The notes beneath the pieces were generated by a model, which was not told the DNA's origin, ran no database searches, and saw only the letters and a program-made list of their open reading frames with translations. This document shows, one piece after another, positions 4,757 to 23,045 of a stretch of 24,000 nucleotides of DNA; within the stretch, counting starts at the first letter, position 1, and each line of letters starts with the position of its first letter. Both the position numbers and the translations under genes were made by a program. The stretch is from an uncultured Clostridia bacterium (GTDB lineage: Bacteria > Bacillota > Peptococcia > Peptococcales > Peptococcaceae). The DNA is taken from assembly GCA_944391625.1 (NCBI GenBank), contig CALXUG010000002.1:16168-40167 (forward strand), given 5' to 3'.

Positions 4757-4910
4757 TTTTAATCTTATGTGCATTCCCATTATCAACAATTCTTTCATAA
4801 TAACTATACTGTACCACATTCCACAGATTACGTATATTATCTTTTACAAAATTTTCTGTATTTCCTTCCTATTGCCATTACACCAGATACCTGCTCCTGT
4901 TTTCAGAACA

Positions 4911-4943
4911 ATAAAAAAGCAACCACCCATAGGATGATTGCTT
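4911..4943 (-). terminator. Putative rho-independent terminator
   Basis: Minus-strand read AAGCAATCA, loop, TGGTTGCTT, then TTTTTTATT. It lies about 130 nt downstream of the 5076 gene end. Confidence 0.5.
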
Positions 4944-5075
4944 AAATAAATGTTTCAGTTTTGTAATAGATGCTGCGTTCATTTTTTGTGTAGCAACTTT
5001 ACAAACTGTCAATCTTAAACTTCAATTACTTTATTATACGGTTCAGATTTCAATAACTGTTTCAATTATTTTCAC

Positions 5076-6107
5076 CTATTTGATTTCATTATTAAAATTC
5101 GGAAAGATACACATCTTTCCTCCTTCGGCAGGAATACAATATACCACTGGTTCTTTTATAAAAGGAATATATAAAAAGCTATCTCCTAAGCCATTTTCTC
5201 CAATAAATTCCACAAGAATAAGACCCTTATAAAAACCCAAACTGTTTATAACCGTTTGCTTTATATTTGGATAAGTCTTATATATCTCTTCTGTAATACT
5301 TTCCTCAATAGAAAAAATCCTTTTACATATGTTACTATTTGTATTAATTTTATAAATACTTTTCTCATCATACAAAAAAAAGTCTTCATCTACAGTAATA
5401 CAATTAATACAGTCTATGTCAATATCAAAAAAATCTTGCTTCGTTAAATATTTCATCAACTTTTCAGAAACATTTTCTATGTTATACATCTGTTTATCTC
5501 CAGAAACCAGATCAAGTTCTAATAATTTTAGACTATAATCATTTTGTGTTTCTTTTTTATCTGTTAACGGTTGATTTTCTATAAATAACATTTCTACTTT
5601 ATTATTTTTCTGCATTGCACCATAAATATGATATAAATTAGGTAAATACAAAGGTATTCTCCGTTCATCCACATGAAGTTCATATTCCCCTTTTTTATCC
5701 AGTTCTACCACATCAATAAAACCATTACCATCTATAGTCGAACGCCAAATAATATTTTTACTACTATTATCTGGAACCACCAAATACGGTTGCAACTGTG
5801 GATTTGCTACTATAGTTACCCCATTCCATCGTAAATTACACAAACCATATAGTGCCCCTGTTCCAGAAATTGCATTACCAGAAATTCTTCTCAATATATT
5901 TTCTTTGAGATCCCATTCCCCCAAAAAATCCTCTGGTCTTGATAAATTCTCAACTAATATTGGAATTGTATCTGGCATTTCTTCTAAATTTATTATATAT
6001 TGCTCCTCTATATCTTGAACCTCATCATCCCAGATACTCGCTTTCCCTACAAGAATAATCATCAACATCACCATTGCACAACATAAACACCCTATTATCT
6101 TCTTCAA
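5076..6107 (-). CDS. Hypothetical membrane-anchored protein (343 aa from a TTG start)
   Basis: The track ORF runs 5076-6125. I prefer the TTG at 6107, giving (M)KKIIGCLCCAMVMLMIILVG, because AGAGGTG sits 5 nt upstream. One N-terminal hydrophobic helix; the rest is predicted extracytoplasmic. No family recognised. Very AT-rich. Confidence 0.6.
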   Translation of the reverse strand: MKKIIGCLCCAMVMLMIILVGKASIWDDEVQDIEEQYIINLEEMPDTIPILVENLSRPEDFLGEWDLKENILRRISGNAISGTGALYGLCNLRWNGVTIVANPQLQPYLVVPDNSSKNIIWRSTIDGNGFIDVVELDKKGEYELHVDERRIPLYLPNLYHIYGAMQKNNKVEMLFIENQPLTDKKETQNDYSLKLLELDLVSGDKQMYNIENVSEKLMKYLTKQDFFDIDIDCINCITVDEDFFLYDEKSIYKINTNSNICKRIFSIEESITEEIYKTYPNIKQTVINSLGFYKGLILVEFIGENGLGDSFLYIPFIKEPVVYCIPAEGGKMCIFPNFNNEIK

Positions 6108-6140
6108 AATTACACCTCTTCCCAAATATATTTTATAAAC

Positions 6141-6184
6141 ACAAAAGAACTTACCTGATGTTACTATTAGATAAGTTCTTTTGT
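6141..6184 (-). terminator. Perfect 13-bp stem-loop between the two islet genes (attenuator or terminator)
   Basis: ACAAAAGAACTTA (6141-6153) pairs with TAAGTTCTTTTGT (6172-6184) around an 18-nt loop. It lies just after the stop of the 6191-7468 gene. The trailing sequence is only moderately T-rich. Confidence 0.5.
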
Positions 6185-6190
6185 ATTTAT

Positions 6191-7468
6191 TTATGCGCCT
6201 TCATTAGTAACAGTTCCGTTAGAAAATGTCCATTTTTTCCCTTGTTCAGACAATTTCCACGCTGACTCGTTACCTGAATACCATCTTTCTCCTGCATTTA
6301 AGCCAAATTTTAATTGATTTTCATGCTCTTCTGCAAAAATTCTGTATGGAGTTGTTAACGCTCCTAAAGAATCATAGCTTAGTTGAGCAACAACTCTAAA
6401 TGCCCCATCATAAGTATTACCCTGATTACTTCCGGCATCTGAAGTAATAGACCAAAAATACGTTCTATTTGCAACTAAATCTTCTGTAGCTGCACACCCA
6501 ACACATTGTTGTATGATATTCGAACTATCTCCAAAACTAGTATCTAAATATGCATTTGGCAAATTAGTGGTGTAAGTTCTATGGGTTGTCTTTTGATAAG
6601 CATTTCCAGGATACTGACTGCTATTTTTTTCATTATAGAACATTAAAGTCATTTCTAATGCTTCGTTACTATCAACATTCAAATTGTTTAAGTTCGCAGA
6701 AGAAAATTCATGATACAATGTAGATCTATTTTTCCCACTTGATACATTTGAATCAAATTTTGCTTCAATATCATTCGGGTACCAATTATAACCACATGCC
6801 CTTCTATTGTTCCCATCACCTAAATGAGGGTTTGTACCATTACTAGCACATTTCGTTTTAGTACCATTTAATGAATTATACCAATAGATATTACCATCTT
6901 TTATATGATAACTGCTGTCTACAGCAAGCAATGGCATCGGCACATTATCTACTGTTGGATAACTTACATTTTCATATGGGTCATCTAGATTCATAATTAT
7001 ACTTTCCTGAGTATAACTTCCTTGTAAACTATATGAATTTTTCATTTCTTTTGCTGGAACTATTGTTTCCACTTTTTTTACTACAAGGTCATCTAAAGAA
7101 ATACTCTTATTAACTTCCAATTTTTCTTCATTTAATAATGTTTCATTTACAAAATCTACTTCATTTTTTAATTGCGTTAAAAGTTCTTCATAGGAAACTC
7201 CTTGTTCTTCATCCCGATATCCAATAGTAAGCTCTTCTCCAGCAACATTTACGCTACATTGTATTTCAGAAATCCCTTCTTCCAAAATCGCAATATTATG
7301 TTGATTCGATTCTGATGTCAACATAATATCGTTAAATTCATAAGATATTACCCGAACTCCATTGTTTATATCGGCTACTGTATCTGTAGCTAAAGCTGGA
7401 AAACTACTAAATGTAAATACTGATAAATTAATCAATGCAAATGCTGTCATCTTTTTTACTCTATTCAT
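6191..7468 (-). CDS. Hypothetical secreted protein (425 aa) with Sec signal peptide
   Basis: The track ORF runs 6191-7504. I place the start at the ATG at 7468 because GAGGAG sits 5 nt upstream. MNRVKKMTAFALINLSVFTFSSFPALA/TDT looks like a signal peptide with an AxA cleavage site. The C-terminal half is rich in N, S, T and Y. No family recognised. Confidence 0.65.
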   Translation of the reverse strand: MNRVKKMTAFALINLSVFTFSSFPALATDTVADINNGVRVISYEFNDIMLTSESNQHNIAILEEGISEIQCSVNVAGEELTIGYRDEEQGVSYEELLTQLKNEVDFVNETLLNEEKLEVNKSISLDDLVVKKVETIVPAKEMKNSYSLQGSYTQESIIMNLDDPYENVSYPTVDNVPMPLLAVDSSYHIKDGNIYWYNSLNGTKTKCASNGTNPHLGDGNNRRACGYNWYPNDIEAKFDSNVSSGKNRSTLYHEFSSANLNNLNVDSNEALEMTLMFYNEKNSSQYPGNAYQKTTHRTYTTNLPNAYLDTSFGDSSNIIQQCVGCAATEDLVANRTYFWSITSDAGSNQGNTYDGAFRVVAQLSYDSLGALTTPYRIFAEEHENQLKFGLNAGERWYSGNESAWKLSEQGKKWTFSNGTVTNEGA

Positions 7469-7646
7469 TTTTTCTCCTCGCTTTTTGATAGAATTTATGC
7501 GCATTCATTCTTCTATATAAATTAGGTACAATATTTTTTAGGATCCTAATTGATATTGTTCACAAAAAATATAACATATAATAGTTAATATAGTTCATTT
7601 TCCGTAATTATCGCTCATTTATTTGTAATTATCGTATCTTCAACTC

Positions 7647-9275
7647 TTACACCTTCACCAATGCTTCAACCCTTTTCCCATCCATAAACATCACTTCTAT
7701 TTTATCCTTCTGCAGTACTGTTATCCGTTGAATAATCTTCCGCACCAGCATGTCATTATAGTTGCTCAAATCGAAATTCATCTGCCCGATGATTTCTATT
7801 AACTCTTCATCGATATGTTCTCTATCTGCTCCGATTCGTTCTGCTATCTGACTATTTTGTTTCTCACTATATAATTGCTTCAGTTCGTTTTCTAACTCCT
7901 GAAACTTCTGATCAAAATAATCTAAGTCTGCGGATGTCATGCTCAATAATTCGGATAAATCCAATATAGATTGTTCAATACTTTTTATCTTTTCGTCTAT
8001 CTCCTCAGAATCTTCGTTTGGTACAAATTTTTCTGCTTTGCGCATTCCTTCTTTCAATAACCATTTTAACTCTTCCTGATTTTGAACATATTGATTTATC
8101 GCCCATAGGATTGCCTCATGCAAATCTGTTTCTTCCAATGTCGGTGATTGTCTGCAATATTTGAGCCCATTTTTTAACCGATTGATGCAGCGCCAAACTA
8201 CTTTTTTCTTCCCTTTCTTAGCCCAGGTCACTCTCCGATACGGTGTTCCGCAGTCTCCGCAAATTAGTAACTCTGTCAGCGCATACTGCCCACTGTATCT
8301 TCCCTGCCCAACATCATGAAAAGAATCTTTCTTTTTCACAGCATTCCGCTGTGCCAGTTCTGCTTGAATTAAATAAGCTACTTCTCTGCTTCGTATAGCT
8401 GGATGATGATCCTTTACATAATACTGCGGCAGCTCCCCCTTATTTTCTTTACGTTTATGTTCCAACATATCCACTGTGAATGTTTTCTGCAGCAGCACAT
8501 CACCCATATATTTTTCATTTAACAATATCCGTTTAATTGTTCCCGCCTGCCATTTTTCATTTCCTTTTACGGTTTTAATTCCTCTCTGTTCCAGCATGGC
8601 TTTTATCTGATATAAACTCATTCCAGACAAAAATGCCATATCAATCAATTGTACAATTCTTGCTTCCTGGGGAACAATTTTCCACTCTCCAGCTTTATTT
8701 ACATCAAATCCCAAGATTTTACAACCTCTTCTTAGTTTTCCCTGTTTATATTCTTTCTGTAAAGCCCAGGTTATATTCTTACTGATACTTTCGCTCTCTG
8801 CCTGTGCAAAGGAGCTATATAGTGTCAGGATCATCTCACTGGATATATCCAAGGTATTGATATTTTCTTTTTCAAAAATAATTGCAATTCCTTTTTCCTT
8901 CAACTTTCGAACATAATTCAAAGTATCCAGCGTATTTCTAGCAAATCGGGAAATCGATTTTACCAAAATCACATCTACTTTGCCTTCTTCACAAAGCTGC
9001 ATCAATCTTAAAAATTCTGTTCTGTTTTTTGTCCTGGTACCAGAAATACCCTCATCGGCAAAAATACCAATCAAAACCCAGTCAGGATTATTGGCAATCA
9101 ATTGTGTATAATAAGCTACTTGAGCATCAAAACTGGTCTGCTGATCCTCTTCATCTGTACTAACCCTGCAATACGCAGTCACCCATTTTTTCTTTGGCAA
9201 AATTGTTCTTACATTATGATATGCTGCTACTTCTTTTACCGGTATGCAAGTTACAGTTCTCTTTTCATTTGTCAT
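7647..9275 (-). CDS. Large serine recombinase (542 aa)
   Basis: Track ORF. Resolvase catalytic domain (YCRVSTDEEDQ with the nucleophile Ser, VKSISRFARN), recombinase domain, Cys-rich zinc ribbon (CGDCG...CINRLKNGLKYC) and a C-terminal coiled coil. AAGGAG lies upstream. Confidence 0.9.
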   Translation of the reverse strand: MTNEKRTVTCIPVKEVAAYHNVRTILPKKKWVTAYCRVSTDEEDQQTSFDAQVAYYTQLIANNPDWVLIGIFADEGISGTRTKNRTEFLRLMQLCEEGKVDVILVKSISRFARNTLDTLNYVRKLKEKGIAIIFEKENINTLDISSEMILTLYSSFAQAESESISKNITWALQKEYKQGKLRRGCKILGFDVNKAGEWKIVPQEARIVQLIDMAFLSGMSLYQIKAMLEQRGIKTVKGNEKWQAGTIKRILLNEKYMGDVLLQKTFTVDMLEHKRKENKGELPQYYVKDHHPAIRSREVAYLIQAELAQRNAVKKKDSFHDVGQGRYSGQYALTELLICGDCGTPYRRVTWAKKGKKKVVWRCINRLKNGLKYCRQSPTLEETDLHEAILWAINQYVQNQEELKWLLKEGMRKAEKFVPNEDSEEIDEKIKSIEQSILDLSELLSMTSADLDYFDQKFQELENELKQLYSEKQNSQIAERIGADREHIDEELIEIIGQMNFDLSNYNDMLVRKIIQRITVLQKDKIEVMFMDGKRVEALVKV

Positions 9276-9292
9276 ATTATGTTCATCTCCTT

Positions 9293-10117
9293 TTATACCA
9301 ATTTATCATTTATCATTAAACACTGAATGATTTCATCTGGATTCAATACTATTTTTTTCACGCTATGTTCAATCAGTTCAAAGTCTGGTTCACTTAAAAC
9401 TGTCTGTTGCTGATACAAGTTCTTTAATATTTTTGTGTTGTATGTATGATCCAACGCACTGCAATTCTGATATCGTTCAGCTGCCGCCTGATAAATCAGC
9501 GCCGCTATCTCTTCATCTGCCTTTTTCCGTTCTTTGATTTCCTGTAGTATTTCATTATTCATCTGCATGACAGCTAACGATAACCGAAATGGCTGTTCTT
9601 TTTCAATATCCAGCAGCGCAGGATGTTCTATAATCTGATTTTGTTTTGCCATCAGTTTTTCTTTTAATATATCATCGGTAATATAATTTTTTGTTGTTTT
9701 CCATTCACTTTGGCACTGCCAATTAACGATTGCGCCTATCTTTTCTCGATATACATGACTTCCACAATGCCCACAAATCAGTTTTGCACGAAACGCCTTC
9801 GGCCATTCTGTCTTTACTGCCCGATTACTTGCTTTCTTTTCTTTTAGCAGCTGCACTGCTTCCCATTGCAGTGGATCTATTAATTGCGAATAACCATTGA
9901 TACCACAGTACTCTTCTCGCTCTAAAATACGTTTCACCATATTTTTGTTCCAACCGCAATCATCGTCCCGATAAGCAACTTTTCCTTCCGCTAACCACTG
10001 AGCCAATTGCCCATAGGAATACCCCTGCTGATATTTGCTAAAAATCTGCTGCACAGCCTCCCCTTCTTTTGGATGCGCCACTATCACCCCATCTACAATC
10101 TGATAACCAAATGGCAA
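9293..10117 (-). CDS. Recombinase-domain plus zinc-ribbon protein lacking the resolvase catalytic domain (274 aa as called from TTG)
   Basis: Track ORF. It begins (L)PFGYQIVDGVIVAHPKEGEAVQQIF, which is the start of the serine-recombinase 'recombinase' domain. CGHCG...WQC forms a zinc ribbon. There is no S-R catalytic N-domain and no SD before the TTG. The true start is uncertain (see findings). Confidence 0.7.
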   Translation of the reverse strand: MPFGYQIVDGVIVAHPKEGEAVQQIFSKYQQGYSYGQLAQWLAEGKVAYRDDDCGWNKNMVKRILEREEYCGINGYSQLIDPLQWEAVQLLKEKKASNRAVKTEWPKAFRAKLICGHCGSHVYREKIGAIVNWQCQSEWKTTKNYITDDILKEKLMAKQNQIIEHPALLDIEKEQPFRLSLAVMQMNNEILQEIKERKKADEEIAALIYQAAAERYQNCSALDHTYNTKILKNLYQQQTVLSEPDFELIEHSVKKIVLNPDEIIQCLMINDKLV

Positions 10118-10165
10118 TCGTCTGTTTTTTTGTTTTTTCCTGTATTCACTTTTACCCCTCCATCT

Positions 10166-10591
10166 TTAACCCAGTCCTTGCAGCATTGCAGGCGCTGCTT
10201 TTTCATAATCGGGTTCTTCATCATTTTCAAACTGTATTTTTTCAGATAACCCTAAACTAATTGCTAAGGCCGCATCTACCTGCTGCATCACAGCTGCACC
10301 AAAATGACCCATGTATCGCCGCAATCTTTGCCGATCCAGAGTACGGACCTGCTCTAACAAAATTAACGTTTTATCCCGCAGCCCAAACGCTTCACCGGAA
10401 ATACAAATATGTGTTGGCAGATTGTGTTTATTCTGCTGGCTTGTTATTGCTGCTGCTATCACTGTTGGACTGTAATGATTCCCCACATCATTTTGAATAA
10501 TCACCACTGGCCGAATTCCTCCCTGTTCGCATCCAACAGATGGATTCAAATCAGCATAGTAAATATCCCCACGCCGCACTGCTGTTTTCAT
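10166..10591 (-). CDS. PemK/MazF-family endoribonuclease toxin with an acidic C-terminal extension (141 aa)
   Basis: Track ORF. RGDIYYADLNPSVGCEQGGIRPVVIIQND and LEQVRTLDRQRL are typical MazF/PemK segments. AAGAGGAGA overlaps the end of the upstream recombinase gene, and the ATG lies 7 nt after that gene's stop. Confidence 0.85.
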   Translation of the reverse strand: MKTAVRRGDIYYADLNPSVGCEQGGIRPVVIIQNDVGNHYSPTVIAAAITSQQNKHNLPTHICISGEAFGLRDKTLILLEQVRTLDRQRLRRYMGHFGAAVMQQVDAALAISLGLSEKIQFENDEEPDYEKAAPAMLQGLG

Positions 10592-10598
10592 ACTATTT

Positions 10599-12146
10599 TC
10601 ATCTCCTCTTTACATTCAATTTTTCCCGAAACTGAAATCCGCCAGATAAATAAAAAACGGCATCATCTTCCTCGGTTATCACAATTTTAGTAACCATCTT
10701 CAGAAACAGCTCCTCTGGAAAAACTTCTAACCGCTGCGGTCCTTTTTCTATTAGGCTTATCAATGTTTTAACCCGGTTGATTACTTGATTCCCCCGTACT
10801 CTCTGCATCAACGCTTCTCCTCTGGCTTGTTTCAACTGCTCATTCAATTCCCGAATTTTTTCTATAAAAATAGCAGATTCAAGATGCCCTCGACTTTGCA
10901 GCCTTGAAAGGACCTGAATCTGCTTTTGAATTTTTATTGTTTCTTTTCCTGTTTCTAACGAGATACTTTCTCCCAACTGGTTCTGATATAATAATTCCAG
11001 CTGCTGCAAAGCTGGCACTAATACTTTTTTATAATTTATCTTCAATTTATGATACATTGTCATAAATGCTTCGTAAATACTGTTTTCTTCTATTGCCATA
11101 ATCGGGCATTCTTCTTTCCCTCTGACATGGGTTTGACATACCCAATATAACTTACTCCCATTGGTTTTATAGCGCAGTTTACTTCCGCAATAATCACAAA
11201 ACAATTTATTCTGCAGTACTCGATTGTTTTTCATAGAAAGCGATTGCTCTGGTTTTATCTGCTCTATCAAACGCTGTGTTTTTTCTGCTTCTTCTTTTGT
11301 AATCATTGCATCCTGCGCATGTTCTATATAAAACTGTTCCCTCTGGCCTTGATTTGCCTTTCTCACATACGGTAACGTATCGGTTGTATAGGTTTTCTGC
11401 ACTAAGGCATCTCCAAAATATTTTTCATTCAATAACAGGTATCGAATACCTGATGCTGTCCACACACCATTATGTTTCTCTTTCGGCACTCTAAAATAAT
11501 TTAGCGTATCTGCAATCTTCTGACAGCTATTGCCAGCCAGAAACTGCCTATAGATCCACTGCACCACCGGCTTTTCCTGTTCATTGACGATCAGATTGCC
11601 GTCTTGCAGTGTGTACCCATATGGTGCACAGGTTGTAATAAATAACCCTTGCTCCATTCTGCGTTTAAACGTCCAGCGAATATTTCTGGATAAGGAACGG
11701 GACTCTTCTTCTGACAAACAGCCGAAAAAAGTAAGCAGCAGTTCATCATCCAACTCACTGGTATTGACATGTTCTTTTTCAAATATCACACTGATATTCA
11801 AACCTTTTAGTTTTCTTATATAAAACAGGCATTCCTCAATATTTCTGGCAAATCGGGATACCGACTTTACCAGAATGCAATCAATCTCTCCTGCCTGACA
11901 ATCTCTTATCATTTGCTGAAACCCTGGGCGCTTTTCCGCACTGGTTCCTGTAATTCCCTTATCGGAATAAATATCTACTAAAATCCAATCTGGGTGTTTC
12001 AAAATATATTCTCTGTAATAACTGATTTGAAACTCATAGGAGTTATTTTGGCTGTCTTCTTCGGTACTAACACGAGCGTAAGCACAGACTCGTTTTTTCT
12101 TTGTCTGCAGTTGCTTGATTGGCTCTATCACGAATACTTCTGGCAT
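10599..12146 (-). CDS. Large serine recombinase (515 aa)
   Basis: Track ORF. YARVSTEEDSQ catalytic motif, VKSVSRFARN, recombinase domain (APYGY), zinc ribbon (CDYCG...CQTH...C) and coiled coil. GAGGTG lies 7 nt upstream of the ATG. Confidence 0.9.
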   Translation of the reverse strand: MPEVFVIEPIKQLQTKKKRVCAYARVSTEEDSQNNSYEFQISYYREYILKHPDWILVDIYSDKGITGTSAEKRPGFQQMIRDCQAGEIDCILVKSVSRFARNIEECLFYIRKLKGLNISVIFEKEHVNTSELDDELLLTFFGCLSEEESRSLSRNIRWTFKRRMEQGLFITTCAPYGYTLQDGNLIVNEQEKPVVQWIYRQFLAGNSCQKIADTLNYFRVPKEKHNGVWTASGIRYLLLNEKYFGDALVQKTYTTDTLPYVRKANQGQREQFYIEHAQDAMITKEEAEKTQRLIEQIKPEQSLSMKNNRVLQNKLFCDYCGSKLRYKTNGSKLYWVCQTHVRGKEECPIMAIEENSIYEAFMTMYHKLKINYKKVLVPALQQLELLYQNQLGESISLETGKETIKIQKQIQVLSRLQSRGHLESAIFIEKIRELNEQLKQARGEALMQRVRGNQVINRVKTLISLIEKGPQRLEVFPEELFLKMVTKIVITEEDDAVFYLSGGFQFREKLNVKRR

Positions 12147-13638: not shown

Positions 13639-14007
13639 GGAAATCACCTCCTAGTATAATAATGATGTAGTCAAGAATGACTACTTGATTAATTAGTTTC
13701 TATACAGATAACAAAAGAATGTGTTCTTCCTTCATCAGATGTTATCCATACTAATCATCATGTCTGACGGTTCCTGATAGACACCGGATAAAACATAAGG
13801 TATCATCCTTTAGGATAGGACAAATAATGTATCACTCCTTGGGATGCTGTTTTAATCAGCCCATACCTACAAGAAAGTCAATTAGTCCATTCGGCAGGGT
13901 TTTATGTTTTAGCTGGTTGGGAGCCGGAAGGCCATACCCGAATAACACGCTAGGTTGTGTACCTGTCAGACTGGAAATGGATTCCTATCAGAAAGGAGCT
14001 TCCGCTC

Positions 14008-15324
14008 ATGTCAAACAAAATTATTTTTAATCTTGATGAATTATTCATCTCTGTTGGCATTGATGTCAGCGCTGACTTCTCATGGATGTCTATTGCACTT
14101 CCAAACCAACAGTTTGTAGGAAAGCCTTATAAAATCCTACACAATAGCATGGATTCCCTTTCAACCGCTGTTTCTAAAATAAAAGAAGCAGAAGAGTTGT
14201 ATTCTTTGGAAAGTCGCATTTTCCTCGAATCCACGGGAGTTTATCATTACCCACTCTTCTGCTATCTTCGTGATAAGGGTTTTAACTGCTCGGTTATAAA
14301 TCCTATCATCACTAAGAATAGCACAAATATCAACATACGAAAAGTGCATAATGACCGTTTTGATTCTAAAAAAGCTGCTTTAGTTGGTTTGAAACCTGAT
14401 TTAAAGGTTTCTCTTATGCCTTCTGACCTTGTTCTAAACTGCCGCAATCTCTCTCGTGAATACTACGATTTAATGGATAACCGCAGTGCTTATGTGAACA
14501 AGCTTCAAGGGGAACTGCGTATGGCATTTCCACAGTATCTTGGCATTTTCTCCAAGGTTACCACTCATACATCTCTTACCTTATTGGAAACTTATACGTC
14601 TCCATCTGCCTTTATTGCAGCCGACAAGCAAGAGATGATTGACACTATCAGGTCAACTGCCCGCTTTGGACTTACATATGCTCAGAACAAGTATAATGCC
14701 ATTATAAAGGCTGCTAATGAAGCCAATGAATTTGGTTACATCATTGACAGCAACATCAAGCGGATTCGCCTGTATATCAGTTTCATTCGCAAATATGATG
14801 AAGAAATCAACAATATTCTGCAAGCAATGCATGAACTCGTAAATGCTAATGAAGATACTGATTTTGTCAAACAGATTCACTTAATCGAAACATTTAAAGG
14901 TGCTGGCTTTTTATCTGCCGTATCTCTTATGGGAGAGATTGGTGATTTTTCTGCTTTTTCAAAACCAAAACAGCTTTTTGCTTACTTTGGGCTGGATCCG
15001 GCTGTAAAACAATCCGGTAAATTTGAAGGCACCAAAATTCAAATGTCGAAAAGAGGGTCTGTTATAGCCAGACGGGTTATTCATACCCTTACTTTACAAA
15101 GCATCAGTATATCTCGCACAGGAGAAGCAAAAAATCCGGTACTTCGTGATTACTATCTCAAAAAATGTGAATCAAAACCAAAGCTTGTTGCAATGGGCGC
15201 TGTTTCACACAAGGTATGCAACATCATATTTGCAATCCTAAGAGATAACAAACCTTTTGAAATCATGACTCCACAGGAGCATATCCAACAATACAATGCT
15301 GCTAAATGCCACATAGCTGCATAA
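14008..15324 (+). CDS. IS110-family DEDD transposase (438 aa)
   Basis: The track ORF runs 13957-15324. I place the start at the ATG at 14008 after GAAAGGAG. N-terminal VGIDVSADFS and LESTGVYH (DEDD RuvC-like domain). C-terminal GAGFLSAVSLMGEIGDFSAFSKPKQLFAYFGLDPAVKQSGKF (Transposase_20 domain). Confidence 0.9.
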   Translation: MSNKIIFNLDELFISVGIDVSADFSWMSIALPNQQFVGKPYKILHNSMDSLSTAVSKIKEAEELYSLESRIFLESTGVYHYPLFCYLRDKGFNCSVINPIITKNSTNINIRKVHNDRFDSKKAALVGLKPDLKVSLMPSDLVLNCRNLSREYYDLMDNRSAYVNKLQGELRMAFPQYLGIFSKVTTHTSLTLLETYTSPSAFIAADKQEMIDTIRSTARFGLTYAQNKYNAIIKAANEANEFGYIIDSNIKRIRLYISFIRKYDEEINNILQAMHELVNANEDTDFVKQIHLIETFKGAGFLSAVSLMGEIGDFSAFSKPKQLFAYFGLDPAVKQSGKFEGTKIQMSKRGSVIARRVIHTLTLQSISISRTGEAKNPVLRDYYLKKCESKPKLVAMGAVSHKVCNIIFAILRDNKPFEIMTPQEHIQQYNAAKCHIAA

Positions 15325-16796: not shown

Positions 16797-16887
16797 ACAC
16801 TCATTTCTCCGGTTCGTCAATCTAGTTTGGATTAACAGTAACCCCTGTCCTTTATGAAATTGCGTAAAGAAACAAGGGGTAACTGTT

Positions 16888-16980
16888 TTACATAGTTTCG
16901 ATACGATTTTGCTTTACCACATTGATGCTGATCTCCTGTTTACACTTTGGACAATAGAGTGGAAAGTTTAACACAGTAAT
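16888..16980 (-). pseudogene. 5'-truncated second KTR gene (C-terminal ~30 codons only)
   Basis: Hand translation: ITVLNFPLYCPKCKQEISINVVKQNRIETM*. It aligns with the C-terminal half of the intact KTR protein, but the DNA is clearly diverged. The N-terminal CPVCG half is missing. The break coincides with the stop codon (16981-16983) of the first AT-rich cargo gene. Confidence 0.65.
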
Positions 16981-17409
16981 TTATTCCCCTTGCGAAAAAT
17001 CTACCCAAACATAACTGGATCCATCTTTTTCATTGAAAACAGATCTCAAACTACCCCACTCAAATTTTAATGGAACCATCGCAAATTCTTGTTGCAACCA
17101 ATTATCATTTCTTTTTTTCCGCTCCAATTCCCGCTCCTTACTCCAATCATTCCAAGATGGAATTTCATCATTATCTTGAATGGACAATAAGACATACTTT
17201 AACGATTTATTATCTTGTTCAAAATATAGCCTCACTATAAAAAACATTTCCCCACTTTTTCGTGGTTTCAAATACAATTCTATATTGGTATTAATATCAT
17301 AAGAATATATTTCATCCTCACCAATCATCTCAAGAAACTTTGTTAATCCCATATACGGCATTAATATAAATTCATCAAAAGTTATATATCCATTTATTTG
17401 ATCTATCAT
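16981..17409 (-). CDS. Hypothetical cytoplasmic protein (142 aa), last gene of the AT-rich cargo block
   Basis: The track ORF runs 16981-17427. I place the start at the ATG at 17409 (MIDQINGYITF...) with GGAGG 8 nt upstream. No TM segment or signal peptide. It is separated from the kinase gene by 245 nt that contains a TATAAT, so it may have its own promoter. No family recognised. Confidence 0.55.
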   Translation of the reverse strand: MIDQINGYITFDEFILMPYMGLTKFLEMIGEDEIYSYDINTNIELYLKPRKSGEMFFIVRLYFEQDNKSLKYVLLSIQDNDEIPSWNDWSKERELERKKRNDNWLQQEFAMVPLKFEWGSLRSVFNEKDGSSYVWVDFSQGE

Positions 17410-17654
17410 TAGATATCCTCCTTCCATTACAAATTATAGGCAATTGTATAAGTCTAAAAACTGCTTAACAAAGCCATTTTTCAGCACGTATATTTATACG
17501 TTTACTCCACTATTTCTAGCATAAATATGCAATCAGTACTGGTATCGCCCTAAAAATGGCGTTTTATTACTTCGACTTTTACAATTTCCTAATGAATAGT
17601 AATTCATTTGTAAAATATACATATTTTATAAAAATATTGTAAGCCGTCTTTGAA

Positions 17655-18553
17655 CTACAGTAATATATCGACCCAACTATAATCTTCTTTTTTATTATAA
17701 TTTGCAGCCAAGTAAAAAAGTGTAAGATATGCTTGCATTGCTTTCAAATAATCAGGATTAACCACAATACTCAATTCATTTTGATACGCTTGTAAAAATG
17801 CAAGAATCAATTCTTCGTCTGGGTTTTCGTTACAGATAGTAGCAAGGTCTTGATAGTAATATCCGTATGAACATAACTCAAAATCAATCGGGGTAAATTG
17901 TGAGTTATTTTTAATCAAGTTATATGAATAGAAGTCGCCATGAATTAACCCTTTTGTATTTTCTTTCATGGACATCGCCTTCATTATACAGTTAATTTTA
18001 TCGCCAGCATCAACTGCAATGTGAAATATGTTTTCATCGAAAAATCCCATTTTGCATCCTAATGAAATTCTTTCCAGAAAAAAATCAATTCTTTCTTCAT
18101 CAAATGGTAATCTTGGGCATCGTTTAGCGATATTAGTATAACGCATACTTGCCTTATGGATTTTAGCCAGTAATTTCCCAATAGCAGAATAATCTGTTAA
18201 AGTAAGTTCCTTTACTTCTGCCTCTTCACCATCAATCCATTCAGTTATAATATACAAAGTATTTTCATATTTGGTAACATATTCCTGCTCTTTATTCTTG
18301 ACAGGTTTTTGTACAGGCAACCCATTTTCTTGTAAGAAACGAAGATACTCCATTTCATACTTAAGTGCTTCATTGGAATATGCGTTGATACCAAACAAAG
18401 AGGCATCATAATCTTGATTATATGTTTTCAATAGATATATGCCATCGTTCGAAACAATTTTCCAAACGCTATTCATATTACCCACACTTTTTCCGTGGTA
18501 TATGTATCCATATCATAGTTCATTAGAATTTGATTTACGAAATCCATCTTCAT
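17655..18553 (-). CDS. APH/CotS-type phosphotransferase (kinase-like fold); apparent -1 frame break at an A5 run
   Basis: The track ORF 17655-18485 has YLLK (ATP-binding Lys), LIHGDFYSYNL (catalytic loop) and IDFE (metal-binding Asp). An ATG at 18553, 18 nt after the radical SAM 2 stop and preceded by GAAGGT, opens MKMDFVNQILMNYDMDTYTTEK in the other frame. This joins the main ORF through a -1 shift at the A5 run (18488-18492). Confidence 0.75.
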
Positions 18554-18571
18554 AACACATTACCTTCTAAA

Positions 18572-19951
18572 CTATTCAGGTAGAATTGGACTATTAGTAG
18601 TTATAATGCTATATAAATCCCTAACCATAAAATCCAGAGTTGTTTTAGCATGAACACAAAAGCCTGGGTCAATGGCATCATATACCGATTTTTCAGAATT
18701 ACGCATACCGTTTATAGGACATCCACCACCACATATTCCCAATGCTTTGCATGATAAACATTCATCTTTATTGACAGGACTGATCTGGCACCATTTCTGC
18801 ATTTCATCCGATTGTTCTAAAGGATCTCTGCTACTAACATCAGTAAAAAAGAACTCTTTGTTTTCAATACAACCTTGGCATATACCAATTCGACCATCCG
18901 GCAACACAACAATCTGGCTACCTGAAGTAGCTGCACAATCAGATAAATACGGAGTACCATCAACAAAAGCTTCTACCTTCCGATTAATACGATCCTCATA
19001 TATACCACGAATTCTTGCGATCTTAAAGAAATCTACAATAAATTTTGATGCCTTTTTGTAATAATCGGTACTCATTTGAAAATCCGGGGTCGAATACAGC
19101 AAATTAAAGCTTACAGCATTGATTTGATATTTATCAAGTAAGGATATAATATCATCTGGATTACTAATTGTTTTTTCTGTAAGAGTTATAGATAGCCCAA
19201 CTTCATATTCACTTTCCTTAACAAGTTCAAGCACTTCCAGTAAATTATCATAAATAGGATTTCCTGATTTATTCACACGATTAATGTTTGATTCGAAATC
19301 AATACCATCAATCGAAATGGAAATTGCCACATTATTCTCTTTCAAAAAATGTATTTTTTCCTTATCAAGGAGCAATCCATTTGTAACCATTGAGAAATTC
19401 ATTTCAGCGGTAATTTCATTATTGATTTGCATTTCCTTGCATCTGTCAATCACATACTTCAAAGTTTCAAAGTTTAACAATGGCTCTCCGCCATAGAAAA
19501 TGATTTCTTTGCTATGCCCAAACCATTCCGGATGTGTTTTATTTTGGAAAGAAAAATACTGGAGTGCCTTATCAGCAATTTCCTTTTCCATCATCGGCAT
19601 TTGATGCTGCATAATATTTGTATTTGCATTGCCCAAAAAACAATATTTACATGCCAGATTACATTTTTCGGATAAAATTAAATACATAATCGTTGGATAT
19701 GGTGTAAACAATTTTTCTCTAACACGGTTCAAAAGCAAAGCGTCTTCAGCCGGACTATTAACTATAATCTTGTTCTTGACCAACTCGCTATATACCTCAA
19801 CAGGCAAGGAACTTGGTAGTTCATTCGCCGAAACAGATGAAATAATAAAATGATCTTCTTCTCTCACATAAACAGGTTGTAATTGCAAGCTATTGTAATA
19901 AGCATAACTACCGTCATCCATTTTAAATGTATGCGAAAATTTCGATAACAT
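18572..19951 (-). CDS. Radical SAM / SPASM-domain peptide-modifying enzyme 2 (459 aa)
   Basis: The track ORF runs 18572-19987. I prefer the ATG at 19951 (MLSKFSHTFKMDDGSYAYYNSL...) with GAGG 7 nt upstream. The ATG at 19987, which overlaps the upstream stop, is an alternative. CNLACKYC (C97/C101/C104), YGGEPLL, twitch-like CAATSGS...GICQGC, and CLSCKALGICGGGC (CX2CX5CX3C SPASM motif). Confidence 0.9.
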   Translation of the reverse strand: MLSKFSHTFKMDDGSYAYYNSLQLQPVYVREEDHFIISSVSANELPSSLPVEVYSELVKNKIIVNSPAEDALLLNRVREKLFTPYPTIMYLILSEKCNLACKYCFLGNANTNIMQHQMPMMEKEIADKALQYFSFQNKTHPEWFGHSKEIIFYGGEPLLNFETLKYVIDRCKEMQINNEITAEMNFSMVTNGLLLDKEKIHFLKENNVAISISIDGIDFESNINRVNKSGNPIYDNLLEVLELVKESEYEVGLSITLTEKTISNPDDIISLLDKYQINAVSFNLLYSTPDFQMSTDYYKKASKFIVDFFKIARIRGIYEDRINRKVEAFVDGTPYLSDCAATSGSQIVVLPDGRIGICQGCIENKEFFFTDVSSRDPLEQSDEMQKWCQISPVNKDECLSCKALGICGGGCPINGMRNSEKSVYDAIDPGFCVHAKTTLDFMVRDLYSIITTNSPILPE

Positions 19952-19980
19952 AGTTTTTCCTCGCTTTCCATAGATAATAA

Positions 19981-21324
19981 CTACCATAATAAGAAGTCAT
20001 TTGATTCAATCATTAGACGATATAAATTTTCTTTGTATTCTGCACTGCAATTTCGTGGTGCCAACTTCTCAATGTCCACTAAGTATAAATCATCTATTTT
20101 TGTAATTTCATTATAGTTGGCAATTCGACAACCGCCACCACAAACATATCTTAGGTCACACTGATTACAAGGCGTAAATGTTTCAATACTTGACAATTTA
20201 CGTGCAGTTTTTCTTAAACGTAATATTTCAGAAAACTCATCCTCACGTATATTACCATATTTTTTCACTTCATAAACCCGGCCACAAAAAGATACATCTC
20301 CCTGAGAATTTACCGTAAGAGAGCCATATCCACAATTACGAAATATCGTGTTATATTGATGATTTTTCACAAACAATGTTAATTCGTTATTGGGGTATAT
20401 TTCCTCACAAAGTTTTTTTATAGTTTCTGCATAAGCGGCATTGCGTTCCTTAGAAGATTTCACTTTCCTACCATCAATAATTTCGTTTCCGAAAATAATC
20501 AAAAAATCTTTATCTTCATATTTATCCACCAAAGCATTGCCAAACTCTACATATTCATTAAAATATGTTTCCGCATAACCGTATAGTGGAGTAACAATGA
20601 TAGACGTAAAAATGCCTGCATTAAGGAATTGATCCACCGTTTTCAGTGCTTTATCAAATGCACCTTTTCCTCTAATTTCAGCATTCACGTTTTCGTTAAA
20701 CCCATCGATGCTTATCTGAATTTCATCGATATATGGTTTAGCTTCTTCAAATAACGCTTTTGTCCAAGCCGCTCCATTTGATAGCACTTGAGTATACATA
20801 TTATATTCTTTTGCAATTATTAATGCTGGAACAAATGATTTGGATAACGCAACTTCACCGCCTGTTAAGATTAATTTTGTAGCACCAGCTTTGGCACTTT
20901 TTTTAATCAGAGTAATGATTTCTTCTGTTGACAATTCATTTGCAAAAGAATTGTCTGCATACATAAAACAATGCTTACATCTCAAATTACAGTTATTAGT
21001 CAAATAAATGCGCAATTCAAATGAATCGTCATCAAAAGATTCGAAAGTATGTTCCAGATGTTTTCCTTCAATTTGAGCCAATACATATTTTACATCTTCT
21101 TCGTAGCCGTCAAATTGTTTGAATGTATCACCAACTGTACTTTTTCTAAAAATATGTTGAAAAATATCCCGCTGCGTTTGAGTTTCCAAAACAATCCAAC
21201 TCCCATTTTGGGGTGATATATATAACCAAAACCCATAACGGTGGATAATTGTTATATCGGATGGTAAAGAGTATATTTTATTTTCATCAACGCTACAAAC
21301 AAAATTGTTATATTCAATATCCAT
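19981..21324 (-). CDS. Radical SAM / SPASM-domain peptide-modifying enzyme 1 with N-terminal RRE-like extension (447 aa)
   Basis: Track ORF. GGAG lies 7 nt upstream of the ATG at 21324. CNLRCKHC (C112/C116/C119), LTGGEV, CGYGSLTVNSQGDVSFCG, and CNQCDLRYVCGGGC (CX2CX5CX3C). The first ~100 aa (…GSWIVLETQTQRDIFQHI…DVKYVLAQIEGK) look like a PqqD-type peptide-binding domain. Confidence 0.9.
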   Translation of the reverse strand: MDIEYNNFVCSVDENKIYSLPSDITIIHRYGFWLYISPQNGSWIVLETQTQRDIFQHIFRKSTVGDTFKQFDGYEEDVKYVLAQIEGKHLEHTFESFDDDSFELRIYLTNNCNLRCKHCFMYADNSFANELSTEEIITLIKKSAKAGATKLILTGGEVALSKSFVPALIIAKEYNMYTQVLSNGAAWTKALFEEAKPYIDEIQISIDGFNENVNAEIRGKGAFDKALKTVDQFLNAGIFTSIIVTPLYGYAETYFNEYVEFGNALVDKYEDKDFLIIFGNEIIDGRKVKSSKERNAAYAETIKKLCEEIYPNNELTLFVKNHQYNTIFRNCGYGSLTVNSQGDVSFCGRVYEVKKYGNIREDEFSEILRLRKTARKLSSIETFTPCNQCDLRYVCGGGCRIANYNEITKIDDLYLVDIEKLAPRNCSAEYKENLYRLMIESNDFLLW

Positions 21325-21345
21325 AAAAATTCTCCATATAAGTCG

Positions 21346-21377
21346 ACAAGGTCAATGATAAACATCATCGACCTTGT
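21346..21377 (-). promoter_or_regulatory. Intercistronic stem-loop between the peptide gene and radical SAM 1
   Basis: Minus-strand read ACAAGGTCGATGAT-GTTT-ATCATTGACCTTGT: 14 bp with one G-U pair. No T-run follows, so this is more likely an mRNA-stabilising, processing or partial-termination element than a full terminator. Confidence 0.6.
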
Positions 21378-21393
21378 TCGAAACCGAATGCAA

Positions 21394-21504
21394 TTAGCGT
21401 GTGCCAGTTTTTCTGCAGTTACCTACGCATCTGCCACCGATTGTTCTGGAGCAAGATGTGTTCGTACCAAACATTTTTTTTGCATTGTCCTTGTTTGCTG
21501 TCAT
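21394..21504 (-). CDS. Candidate RiPP precursor peptide (36 aa)
   Basis: Not in the track. Hand translation: MTANKDNAKKMFGTNTSCSRTIGGRCVGNCRKTGTR*. GGAGGTG lies 6 nt upstream of the ATG at 21504. It is the first gene of the operon, directly upstream of two SPASM radical SAM genes. Confidence 0.65.
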   Translation of the reverse strand: MTANKDNAKKMFGTNTSCSRTIGGRCVGNCRKTGTR

Positions 21505-21550
21505 GTTATTCACCTCCGTTAAAGCTTTGTTTAACATCACTGTCATATTT

Positions 21551-21578
21551 ATTGTACTCTTTTAAAATTATTTGTCAA
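21551..21578 (-). promoter_or_regulatory. Near-consensus sigma-A promoter of the peptide operon
   Basis: Minus-strand read TTGACA (21578-21573), N16, TACAAT (21556-21551), about 45 nt upstream of the peptide ATG. Confidence 0.55.
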
Positions 21579-21711
21579 GTAGTTAAAAAATAACTGTTGC
21601 TTAAAAAGCTTGAATTTACTGCGTTTTTAAGCATAATTTGAAACATAATAAAAATTGAATCTACATGCTTTTCAATACAATTTTCCAATCGAAAAAGTAT
21701 GGATTGTCATT

Positions 21712-22590
21712 TTATCGTTCCAAATCCTTTTGATTAGGCTTTCTCTGTACCAATTGCTTTTGTTCTTTCTGCTTTGCCCGTAGCTTTTCCATGGCAGATT
21801 GTTTCTCAGCTTCTTCGCCCAGCAGATTTGCCACATCCCGTTTACTGTCGTATATCATCATCGGATCGTATTTCTCGCCGTAGGCGGCTTTCACCCGGTC
21901 AACGGCAGAGCGTTCCTTATCCTCACGAATAGCAAGCCTTGCGTCTATCAGCTCGGTGGCATCCATACCGACGGCTTGCTCTTTCAGCACGGCGTACTGC
22001 TTCAAGGCTTCATCAAGCTCGGCAGAGTATTTCGCCTCCTGCTCAGACAGTTTTTGCAGCGCACCCTCCAATGCGGCAATTTCTTTCTTCACGACAGAAA
22101 TTCCCGCATCATCAGCACAATCCAAAGAACGAAGCAGCATTTCTTTTTCGGTTTTCAGTTCCTCCAATTCCTCGGTCAGCTCGGTAATGCGGCGGGTAAG
22201 GTCGTGCAGCTTAGGTATCTGGTAGAACGGCGTTTCCTTTTTCTCCGCAAGCAGAGATTTCCGTTCCTTACTTTTTTCCTTGATCTGCTGCACCAATGCC
22301 GCATAACGTTCAAGTCCCGGCTTGACCGCCTTGACACACCTGCCCATATTGTGCTTACCCACACCGATATGACGGAGCTGATAACTGAAAATCAGCATAC
22401 TGCTGCGCACTTTCTCCATTGCTTCCGCTATGGCGGGAACAGTATTCTTGACTGCCTGCATCAGCTTCTTAACTGTCGCTTTCAACTCACGGAGCAAAGC
22501 ATTGTCAGCCTTGATCTGTCGGTTGATTTCACAGCGGTCTGGAGTGTTACAATAAAAGTAGAGCCAATCCTTGCGGAAAAATGATAAAAT
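21712..22590 (-). pseudogene. 5'-truncated coiled-coil gene, probably the C-terminal part of a Mob/relaxase-type mobilisation protein
   Basis: The track ORF 21712-22497 starts at a TTG. The frame stays open upstream (…FFRKDWLYFYCNTPDRCEINRQIKADNALL…) into the IS3 remnant, with no start codon or SD. The long E/K/L-rich coiled coil resembles relaxase C-termini of Firmicute mobilisable elements (recollection only). The junction cannot be placed from stop codons. Confidence 0.45.
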
Positions 22591-23045
22591 AGAATAAAAA
22601 ATCCGCAGAAAGAGGTAAAGGAAATGAGTAACACCTACAGCAAAGAAGAACGATTAGAAGCATTGAAACTGGCAGATGAAATCGGTCCGGTAGCAACAGC
22701 ACAACGCCTGAATATCAATCTGAACACCCTCTATAACTGGCAGAGCAAAGCAAGAAAACAGGGTATCACAGCAGAACATCCAACCCCCAAAACAGAAAAA
22801 GAATTGCGGGAAGAAGTATTAGCACTGCAAAAACAACTGAAAGAACGAAATGAAGAAGTCGAAATCTTATAGGCAGCCTTAGGTTTTTTTGCCAAACGCC
22901 AGAAGGGATGACAAAGCATCAGAGAATACAGTTCATAGAACAGACAGCTGGTCAATGGCCTGTAAAAAAGATGTGTCAGGTATTACAGATTTCTGAAGCC
23001 GGATATTACAAATATCTGCGTCAGAAAACAAAACCGCAGAAAACA
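22582..23045 (+). mobile_element. IS3-family insertion sequence remnant (left part only; ends approximate)
   Basis: orfA followed by the first ~45 codons of orfB in the -1 frame. Most of orfB (the DDE domain) and the right end are missing. Confidence 0.7.
22624..22872 (+). pseudogene. IS3-family transposase OrfA (HTH plus leucine zipper) with TAG where the frameshift window should be
   Basis: Track ORF MSNTYSKEERLEALKLADEIGPVATAQRLNINLNTLYNWQSKARKQG…EEVEIL*. Reading past the TAG gives AALGFFAKRQKG*, i.e. the conserved EILKKAxxFFAK region. The usual A-rich slippery site is replaced by TTA TAG. Confidence 0.7.

Follow-up and report, generated by a model that had tools for sequence, protein, structure and literature searches.

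The FibroRumin system is one of many computationally defined and never tested radical S-adenosylmethionine (rSAM) peptide systems, and no experimental paper on it was found in the literature searched. Its canonical loci encode one or two Cys-rich target peptides (TIGR04135/PF27848), a single rSAM peptide maturase and, immediately downstream, a UvrA paralogue of approximately 710 amino acids (aa) that is without the first ~260 UvrA residues; these loci often lie just downstream of relaxase genes. Other described systems of relevance are the sactipeptide system StsA/StsB of Streptomyces sparsogenes and BlaA/BlaB, the ranthipeptide maturases CteB (thermocellin), PapB (freyrasin) and the SCIFF maturase, the thioether-peptide clusters of thuricin CD (TrnC/TrnD) and ruminococcin C (RumMC1/MC2), the stand-alone kinases of class V lanthipeptide and thioamitide pathways, and antibiotic kinases such as the amicoumacin kinase AmiN. 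In the present work, we have analyzed a stretch of 24,000 nucleotides (hereafter the window) from an uncultured Clostridia bacterium (assembly GCA_944391625.1, contig CALXUG010000002.1, positions 16,168 to 40,167 of the forward strand), the minus strand of which carries a small operon resembling these systems. We consider it likely that this operon directs the synthesis of a peptide that is made by the ribosome and then modified post-translationally (RiPP), that its core consists of three genes (viz. a precursor and two rSAM/SPASM maturases of different families) to which a kinase is added as a lineage-specific accessory, and that it represents a distinct and unnamed offshoot of the FibroRumin system. 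Window coordinates are used throughout for this operon.

Read along the minus strand from 21578 to 16981, the block contains, in order, a promoter-like site, a Shine-Dalgarno sequence, a 36-codon open reading frame (ORF), a hairpin, the rSAM1 and rSAM2 genes, a kinase gene and an ORF of 148 aa. Five co-directional minus-strand ORFs had been reported by the first-pass annotation, which was made from the letters of the sequence, and all five lie where it placed them. The relationship to FibroRumin comes from the second enzyme. rSAM2 (18572..19987, minus strand, a 471-aa ORF) scores 447.9 bits on the maturase model TIGR04136 (cutoff 400, E = 4e-134), its residues 14-463 aligning to model positions 1-458, and homologues of this protein are named "FibroRumin system radical SAM peptide maturase" by NCBI. 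The operon is hence regarded as a derivative of the named FibroRumin system, and as the family model aligns from residue 14, the true start of rSAM2 is probably Met13 at 19951. The earlier statement that this architecture matches no known class is correct for the combination and incorrect for this enzyme, which passes a curated cutoff and the homologues of which are already annotated. The trio of a peptide, an StsB-like rSAM and a FibroRumin rSAM, together with the Thr-linked kinase described below, is unnamed in the NCBIfam and Pfam collections searched and undescribed in the literature searched, and the papers on RiPP mining in Bacteroidales and in anaerobes do not cover the peptide/rSAM1/rSAM2 system. 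Both cluster motifs of rSAM2 (CX3CX2C and CX2CX5CX3C) are invariant in 36 homologues, as anticipated; its N-terminus, which had been considered different from that of rSAM1, is not different in kind, for the AlphaFold model (predicted local distance difference test, pLDDT, 87.9) has an N-terminal domain of strands plus three helices that resembles a RiPP recognition element (RRE; residues ~18-91).

rSAM1 (19981..21324, minus strand, 447 aa), the gene for which is overlapped by that of rSAM2, matches the Pfam families Radical_SAM and SPASM. Its CX3CX2C (C112/C116/C119) and CX2CX5CX3C (C386/C389/C395/C399) motifs are invariant in 34 homologues, likewise C331 and C347, and C426 is nearly so. An RRE-like N-terminus had also been proposed for this enzyme, and the AlphaFold model (pLDDT 93.9) agrees in that a fused domain of strands plus three helices (residues ~1-90) is predicted at pLDDT >90; the best Foldseek matches in the PDB are SkfB, CteB, anSME and SuiB. 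rSAM1 falls below every curated NCBIfam cutoff, its best model being StsB (NF045574), followed by AhbD, NirJ and MftC, and by sequence it is an StsB/MftC-like enzyme of an unnamed family. The two enzymes are approximately 22-25% identical in tblastn cross-matches, and their family resemblances place them in different families. Thuricin CD and ruminococcin C, which the first-pass annotation had offered as two-maturase analogues, resemble the present locus in having two rSAM genes in the thioether-peptide cluster of a gut Firmicute. They are poor analogues, however, because their paired maturases are paralogues of one family and act with several precursor paralogues, whereas one precursor is accompanied here by two families. 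On the ruminococcin model (RumMC, NF035951) rSAM2 scores 75.4 bits against a cutoff of 720, and RumMC is not among the 25 best-scoring families for rSAM1.

The precursor gene (21394..21504, minus strand, 36 aa plus stop) encodes a leader, MTANKDNAKKMFGTNTS, and a core, CSRTIGGRCVGNCRKTGTR; the window precursor has one core module, three Cys and a net charge of +5. In 14 distinct aligned peptides the residues C18, R20, G23, G24, C26, G28, N29, C30 and R31 are invariant, the family core module being C-x-R-x-[IV]-G-G-x-C-x-G-N-C-R and the leader, of ~17 aa, M-[VT]-A-N...Y-x-K-[LM]-[FY]-G-x-N-x-[DES]. Most family members, that of L003 among them, have a second, nearly identical module, the linker before which is a repeat of the leader end (x-N-x-[DES]-C), and they often end in a short tail with a terminal Trp; the window lineage has a single module without a tail. 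The identical peptide is found in a related locus, L107 (related loci are numbered with the prefix L), and in a public collection as P0247, and a variant with two substitutions is found in L102. When 1.84 billion cluster representatives were searched with the 36-aa peptide by HMMER, ten clusters at 50% identity emerged, eight of which are two-module, indicating that the family is small and coherent. Its conservation is far beyond chance, more than 15 distinct loci having the peptide beside the same pair of enzymes and shuffles of the window giving an expectation of 0.00 for its DNA motif. The 36-aa ORF encodes a real precursor. Public gene calls extend it to 50 aa from an upstream ATG (21394-21546, minus strand; P0247), but the 36-aa start is preferred on account of the position of the Shine-Dalgarno sequence and the M-[VT]-A-N N-termini of all homologues. 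No match was found for the 36-aa peptide in Pfam or NCBIfam, nor for its 36-aa or 50-aa form on TIGR04135 (FibroRuminTarg, cutoff 45 bits).

The association of this peptide with the two enzymes was recovered from both directions. Homologues of rSAM1 that are 45-93% identical were traced to their contigs, where each is flanked by a small ORF with the same core and by a homologue of rSAM2. A reciprocal scan of metagenome contigs, which used a degenerate DNA motif of the peptide only, yielded 11 loci, of which the 8 that have usable flank all carry homologues of rSAM1 and rSAM2 beside the peptide, with the order of the enzymes swapped in one. One locus of the motif scan, L096, was set aside as uninformative, since it lies close to the end of its contig and its single motif stands leaderless at the very beginning of an open frame, possibly by chance. 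Hidden Markov model (HMM) searches of open frames found the peptide, rSAM1 and rSAM2 in all of the related loci, and the trio is co-inherited in Clostridia, in Synergistota and on unassigned contigs from gut and rumen metagenomes. The first-pass annotation had made its reading depend on recurrence of the small ORF beside homologous enzymes and had proposed a survey of their neighborhoods; the ORF does recur with both enzymes, over the whole of the above identity range and in every motif-scan locus with usable flank.

Genes other than the trio are variably present. The kinase is found in the lineage of the window, L107 and L102 and in L001, L003, L104, L109, L110 and L112-114. A UvrA-like ATPase follows the rSAM pair in L005, L106 and L109, and L008, L010 and L101 have neither gene and have housekeeping neighbors. 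No UvrA-like gene was detected in the window by tblastn. As whole clades have the peptide and the two rSAMs alone, the kinase is an accessory and not a core component; the proposal of one peptide served by two different SPASM enzymes and a kinase thus survives for the trio and has to be relaxed for the kinase. That the kinase and the UvrA-like ATPase are mutually exclusive substitutes was considered and rejected, because L109 carries both. A third radical SAM/SPASM gene is present in L106 (1264-2607) between the precursor and rSAM1 genes, its best model being TIGR04463, below the cutoff.

Comparison with canonical FibroRumin loci shows both the extent and the limits of this relationship. The similarities are that rSAM2 meets the maturase model, that the leader (Y-x-K-[LM]-[FY]-G) and the Trp tail of relatives resemble those of canonical targets, that some sister loci retain a UvrA-like ATPase, and that canonical loci are also located on mobilisable elements (MobA/MobL, TnpV, Mob_Pre). 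In contrast, canonical members, which are ~43% identical to rSAM2 and the loci of which (L087-L090) differ in architecture from the window, have one rSAM, whereas here a second, unrelated rSAM stands between the precursor and the FibroRumin maturase; the canonical core is of a CxxC type with 8-10 Cys, whereas the core here is a Gly-, Asn- and Arg-rich module with three Cys that is often duplicated; and here a kinase is added, the peptide is not recognized by the target model (of three canonical targets tested, two score 60-68 bits and the third 32 bits), and the window has no UvrA-like gene. The UvrA paralogues are located at 6400-8526 in L087, 6397-8541 in L089, 4558-6888 in L005, 5312-7642 in L106 and 3721-5805 in L109. 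UvrA paralogues such as DrrC and Ecm16 are drug-resistance proteins in producers of DNA-binding antibiotics. By analogy, this partner hints that FibroRumin-type peptides may have a DNA-directed activity.

For the chemistry of rSAM1, the described enzyme used for comparison is StsB, which installs three Cys-to-Gly sactionines (Precord et al. 2023, PMC10288494) and is the best named model, aligned over its full length, for rSAM1 and for its wider family. Both enzymes lie in an MftC-like sequence region, and StsA is, like the window peptide, a short substrate with three Cys and three invariant Gly. StsB, however, needs a separate RRE protein (StsC), whereas rSAM1 has a fused RRE-like domain; StsA has a C-x-C-x-C...G-x-G-x-G hairpin spacing, whereas Cys and Gly are interleaved in the window family; and the StsA/StsB system is actinobacterial with a single rSAM. 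Six positions in proximity to the catalytic site have been defined, which in StsB, a group 1 sactisynthase, are Y113, T147, I174, S199, K338 and L339 (PMC10288494). We mapped these positions via CteB alignments (chain-numbering offset +3) and found them conserved in family alignments, this being a residue comparison without the scoring of that paper. The corresponding residues of rSAM1 are F120, T154, L181, S205, G348 and R349 ([FY][TS]L S [GSN][RL] in the family), four of the six positions being alike. Those of rSAM2 are F, Y, V, S, Q and G (F Y [VI] S [HQ] G in the family, the last two mostly H-G), compared with F, F, T, S, H and Q in CteB.

A scan of 185,579 species genomes divides the relatives of rSAM1 into two groups. 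The peptide and rSAM2 accompany those at >=46% identity, which are found in Candidatus Clostridium eludens, a Fretibacterium metagenome-assembled genome (MAG) and two other Synergistota MAGs. Seventy-odd others, at <=42% identity, are without either partner and stand beside different peptides of ~33 aa, which in Bacillota, Spirochaetota, Campylobacterota and Desulfobacterota end in ...R[VI]xxMYCFKxCxxNQN and in Bacteroidales have the form MEIxYxV...GCFxxCC. These stand-alone enzymes also have StsB as their best NCBIfam model, below the cutoff. Their genes are loci L011-L086 (e.g. L019 5819-5920, L036, and L032 1031-1138), are at 30-42% identity, are each preceded by such a peptide gene, and occur in Bacteroidales, Treponema, Lachnospiraceae, Megasphaera, Campylobacterota, Desulfobacterota and others; this large unnamed family with its MYCFKxCxxNQN peptides provides further targets for study.

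rSAM2 is instead compared with the ranthipeptide maturases. CteB is the solved structure nearest to it by sequence (2e-25), with the similar lining residues given above, PapB is its second-best NCBIfam model, and the CteB, PapB and SCIFF systems typically occur in exporter-less clostridial operons. These systems differ in having one rSAM each, and rSAM2 remains below their cutoffs (PapB NF047865, 147.3 bits versus 340; SCIFF TIGR03974, 105.7 versus 425). The window peptide also has none of the C-x-x-x-[DE] motifs of these systems; a C18-x-x-T21 is present, but this Thr, the sole conserved one, is replaced by Pro or Ile in sister clades.

Taken together, these resemblances suggest the following scheme. 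The leader (x-K-[LM]-[FY]-G-x-N) would be bound by the RRE domain of one or both enzymes, after which the two enzymes would engage the three Cys of each module in intramolecular thioether crosslinks. rSAM1 would be sactisynthase-like and would probably act on the C-x-x-x-C part, to which the second and third Cys belong, because C-x-x-x-C is the sole feature in common with the substrates of its stand-alone relatives; rSAM2 would be ranthisynthase-like. This would give a crosslinked product of ~17-19 residues, compact and strongly cationic; from a two-module precursor, either two copies of it or a single tandem peptide would be released once the repeated N-x-[DES]/C junction had been cut by a protease whose gene lies elsewhere. 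Where the kinase is present, it would most likely phosphorylate Thr21, three residues after the first Cys, either as a tailoring step or to keep the peptide inactive inside the producer.

Several observations weigh against this scheme or against the place given to the operon within FibroRumin. We infer thioether formation, the carbons that are linked and the division of labor between the enzymes from family resemblance. rSAM1, at 121.2 bits on the StsB model (cutoff 625), is not a member of that family, and its likeness to StsB is limited to lining positions 1-4, positions 5-6 being different; as the substrates of its stand-alone relatives are often Gly-free, Cys-to-Gly links are not to be assumed. 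On the side of the peptide, window-type relatives score at most 7.1 bits on TIGR04135 (E = 5.3), with only the leader region aligned, and hhalign of window-type against canonical FibroRumin peptide alignments matches the leaders with E = 1.6e-4 and 51% probability over 32 columns, which indicates a weak likeness between leader sequences. Among the relatives, neither a protease nor an exporter is conserved, which leaves secretion and antimicrobial action conjectural. For the kinase, its β3 lysine is Arg in three relatives, its link with Thr is drawn from ~11 lineages and 2-3 evolutionary events in unbootstrapped neighbor-joining trees, and the frameshift in the window copy, described below, may mean that the accessory step has been lost.

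The lack of conserved protease, exporter and immunity genes also raises the question of whether the product is an antibiotic. The operon could make a non-antibiotic, cell-associated peptide (a signal, a cofactor-like compound or a metal-binding peptide) in the manner of SCIFF and ranthipeptide systems, which are exporter-less. The trio is located among housekeeping genes (Kdo transferase, SSB and DUF2232) in the loci of Synergistota and of related metagenomes, and rSAM1 falls in the same sequence region as MftC, a cofactor maturase, both of which accord with such a role. Mobile elements, a cationic core and accessory kinase or UvrA-like genes, however, are more typical of toxins with immunity, and multi-copy cores of secreted RiPPs; neither point is decisive, and we regard a cell-associated function as rather unlikely.

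The kinase gene (17655..18554, minus strand) encodes a protein of the aminoglycoside phosphotransferase (APH) fold. This part of the earlier annotation, which had cited HGDFxxxN and IDFE motifs, is borne out by a score of 64.2 bits on PF01636 (cutoff 23.2) and by the invariance of H205, D207, N212 and D224 (HGDxxxxN, IDF) in 8 relatives. Six relatives were found in a word index, and all that could be placed sit on contigs of the same operon type. The presence of the kinase is related to one position of the peptide. The kinase-bearing lineages (viz. the window/L107/L102 lineage, L001, L003, L104, L110 and L112-114) all have Thr three residues after the first Cys (R-T-[IVP]-G-G), the kinase-less lineages with enough downstream sequence (L005, L106, L008, L010 and L101) have Pro or Ile there, and no other Ser or Thr is common to all kinase lineages. 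In neighbor-joining trees of both enzymes, the kinase/Thr lineages are placed at the base and inside the crown, which implies at least two joint losses of the kinase and the Thr. The occurrence of the kinase only where this residue is Thr suggests that it acts on the peptide, and there is moderate evidence, from this covariation, for Thr21 as its probable site. Thr33 (C-R-K-T) was also considered as a phosphorylation site and rejected, as Ile, Ala, Ser, Val or Pro takes its place in the kinase-bearing L102, L104, L110 and L112.

Stand-alone PF01636 kinases with conserved HGDxxxxN and DF are known from RiPP clusters, and the class V lanthipeptide kinases had been proposed as an analogy for this gene. 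If the analogy were followed in full, the kinase would phosphorylate Ser/Thr, elimination would give a dehydro residue to which Cys adds, and the rSAMs would do something else; APH-fold kinases are reported to act in this way in class V lanthipeptide, thioamitide and kintamdin pathways (PMC9486802, PMC9415263), and the single Thr that covaries with the kinase could be read likewise. The analogy does not extend so far. No lyase, cyclase, protease or exporter is encoded in the block by ORF, Pfam and NCBIfam searches, as had been claimed, no lyase or cyclase is conserved in any relative, and no HopA1-type or other phospho-lyase or cyclase gene was found in the window or in kinase-bearing relatives, which makes lanthipeptide-style dehydration unlikely. 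Only one hydroxyl residue is common to the kinase lineages, and the clades with Pro or Ile at its position keep the same three Cys and both rSAMs, so that the partners of the Cys are independent of a dehydrated Thr. We therefore consider a lanthipeptide-like route highly improbable and return to phosphorylation of Thr21 in a peptide crosslinked by the rSAM enzymes.

What such a phosphorylation would accomplish can be read in a second way, as self-immunity, with the kinase inactivating the mature peptide in the producer, the UvrA-like ATPase serving as an alternative or additional immunity factor, and the exported product being unphosphorylated. The nearest solved structures to the kinase are antibiotic-inactivating enzymes, viz. 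an aminoglycoside phosphotransferase (6ef6) and the amicoumacin kinase (6sui); the kinase is dispensable for the core system; it occupies the slot of the UvrA-like genes, with one of which it may coexist (L109), and the resistance role of DrrC and Ecm16 mentioned above points in the same direction; the covariation with Thr fits immunity and tailoring equally well. Against this stand the low similarity to the resistance kinases (E around 1e-6), the lack of a linked dephosphorylating enzyme or exporter, the clades with neither kinase nor UvrA-like gene, which would have no visible immunity gene, and the window itself, where the kinase is frameshifted and the biosynthetic genes are intact, a risky state if the product is toxic. 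Self-immunity is accordingly a tentative explanation, less likely than not, that merits consideration beside tailoring.

The frameshift is a 1-bp deletion at 18484/18483, seen in comparison with L107 and L102 (relatives that are 91-94% identical), which separates the first ~24 codons from the rest of the gene. From the ATG at 18554 the frame now runs into a dead end of 25 codons, and the main ORF (17655-18485) encodes 276 aa from a GTG at 18485, in place of the 299 aa encoded by close relatives from the equivalent of the ATG at 18554. The 276-aa form is present on 12 other public contigs, intact 299-aa alleles such as P0241 exist too, and the 276-aa allele is real and circulating. Together with the absence of a UvrA-like gene, the single module and missing tail where most relatives have two modules and a Trp-ending tail, the IS110 and IS3 copies on either side of the block and the truncation of the relaxase-like ORF upstream, this deletion could be taken to mean that the window copy is a decaying, non-functional remnant. 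The precursor and both rSAM genes are intact, however, with all invariant residues kept, as are the promoter, the Shine-Dalgarno sequence and the hairpin, and the 276-aa ORF retains the nucleotide-loop region and all of the catalytic residues. Furthermore, the one-module peptide and the 276-aa kinase recur on 10-13 independent contigs, from which it follows that the window-type allele is maintained and spreading. A remnant is for these reasons an unlikely account of the window copy, and the operon is better understood as a RiPP operon of the three-gene type with an accessory kinase.

A more far-reaching proposal, that the operon defines an undescribed class of RiPP in which a short three-Cys module is crosslinked by a sactisynthase-like (Cα) and a ranthisynthase-like (Cβ/γ) enzyme and, in the Thr lineages, phosphorylated on Thr by an APH-fold kinase without a lyase, is offered as speculation that is more probably wrong than right. 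If it were true, the product would be a mixed sacti-/ranthi-peptide and either the first phosphothreonine-bearing radical-SAM RiPP or a case of kinase-based self-immunity, and the recurrent UvrA-paralogue partner would further suggest that these peptides act on DNA. This conserved offshoot adds a second, unrelated rSAM and a peptide kinase to the FibroRumin theme, on a 36-aa substrate of a size suited to direct chemical analysis. With three Cys, one candidate phosphorylation site and natural Thr, Pro and Ile variants, the bond made by each enzyme could be assigned by a few co-expressions, and the system could show whether sacti- and ranthi-chemistry are combined on one scaffold and what role an APH-type kinase has in a RiPP cluster without a lyase. 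Members of the family are found in anaerobes of the gut and rumen and move on mobile elements, so that an antimicrobial or signaling activity, if there is one, would bear on competition in these communities.

Signals for expression of the operon are readily recognized. The promoter-like site (21551..21578, minus strand; TTGACA-16 nt-TACAAT) agrees with the consensus at 11 of 12 positions and is the best of 28 such sites in the 5.9 kb scanned (16800-22700); it is a consensus match only, and the number of sites across this region is not above that in shuffles. A Shine-Dalgarno sequence, GGAGGTG (21511..21517, minus strand), is located 6 nt before the ATG of the 36-aa ORF, so that the near-consensus promoter and strong ribosome-binding site noted previously are both confirmed. 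The stem-loop between the precursor gene and rSAM1 (21343..21381, minus strand), also noted previously, consists of 13 bp plus 4 bp without a U-tract and has a folding energy of -24.2 kcal/mol (z = -4.46), which none of 200 shuffles equalled. All 11 of the related loci that were examined have a strong hairpin in the corresponding place, its sequence being unrelated between loci and followed in several by U-runs. A hairpin after the precursor gene usually serves to raise the level of precursor transcript above that of enzyme transcript, and the hairpin in the window is probably a partial terminator or a stabilizer of the precursor mRNA.

The downstream limit of the conserved module is set by L107, with which the window DNA aligns over 17631-22332 only, at 92% identity; the alignment ends 24 nt past the stop codon of the kinase gene (17631..17654, minus strand, being the last bases in common), and the sequence beyond the kinase gene differs between the two. 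The 148-aa ORF (16981-17427, minus strand; 148 aa counted from the first ATG, 142 aa from Met7), which had been taken as a fifth gene of 142 aa, is separated from the kinase gene by a gap of 228 nt. We rejected it as a member of the operon, since it has no homologue in any related locus and lies beyond the end of synteny with L107 at 17631; no match was found for it in Pfam, NCBIfam or PADLOC. This AT-rich ORF thus appears as separate, unexplained cargo outside the module shared with L107.

The G+C content of the block (16981-21600) is 32.7%, compared with 38.7% in the left flank, 41.0% in the right flank and 45.7% in the genes of the chromosomal part (Mqo and fumarase), with which the window begins on its left; the block is AT-rich, as had been noticed, but the estimated contrast of about 30% with flanks in the mid-40s was too large. 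Its identification as mobile-element cargo is upheld. The block is flanked by IS110 and IS3 copies and adjoins a truncated relaxase-like ORF, the element contains three large serine recombinases, and the operon in the window is cargo of this serine-recombinase mobile element. Near-identity DNA searches of plasmid and phage collections gave no match to the block, and scans of viral contigs with the peptide motif and with the rSAM2 alignment gave no true relatives, the matches to the latter being generic rSAMs at <=37% identity in partial alignments; the module is not phage-borne in the viral contig collection scanned. PADLOC reported, for the window, generic similarity to viperin-type rSAMs and generic ABC/AAA matches and assigned no defence system.

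The remaining observations concern the element and its other genes. Its backbone (7647-12146, 10166-10591, 13957-15324 and 22624-22872) includes three large serine recombinase genes, one of which is short at its N-terminus, together with a MazF/PemK toxin gene, a transposase of the IS110 family and a fragment of an IS3-type transposase. There are also small genes (DUF4314, Cys_rich_KTR and HTH) of the kind typically carried by conjugative or mobilisable elements of clostridia. Upstream of the operon, a coiled-coil ORF of 261 aa (21712-22497, minus strand; 49% G+C), which has no family match and accompanies the operon in L107, looks like the C-terminal remnant of a relaxase/mobilisation protein cut by the IS3 copy. 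A second AT-rich block (4206-7600, 30.7% G+C) directly follows the chromosomal fumarase gene; its ORFs of 349 and 437 aa, for which no Pfam, NCBIfam or PADLOC match was found, lie beside the first large serine recombinase gene, and this block is probably more cargo at the edge of the element.

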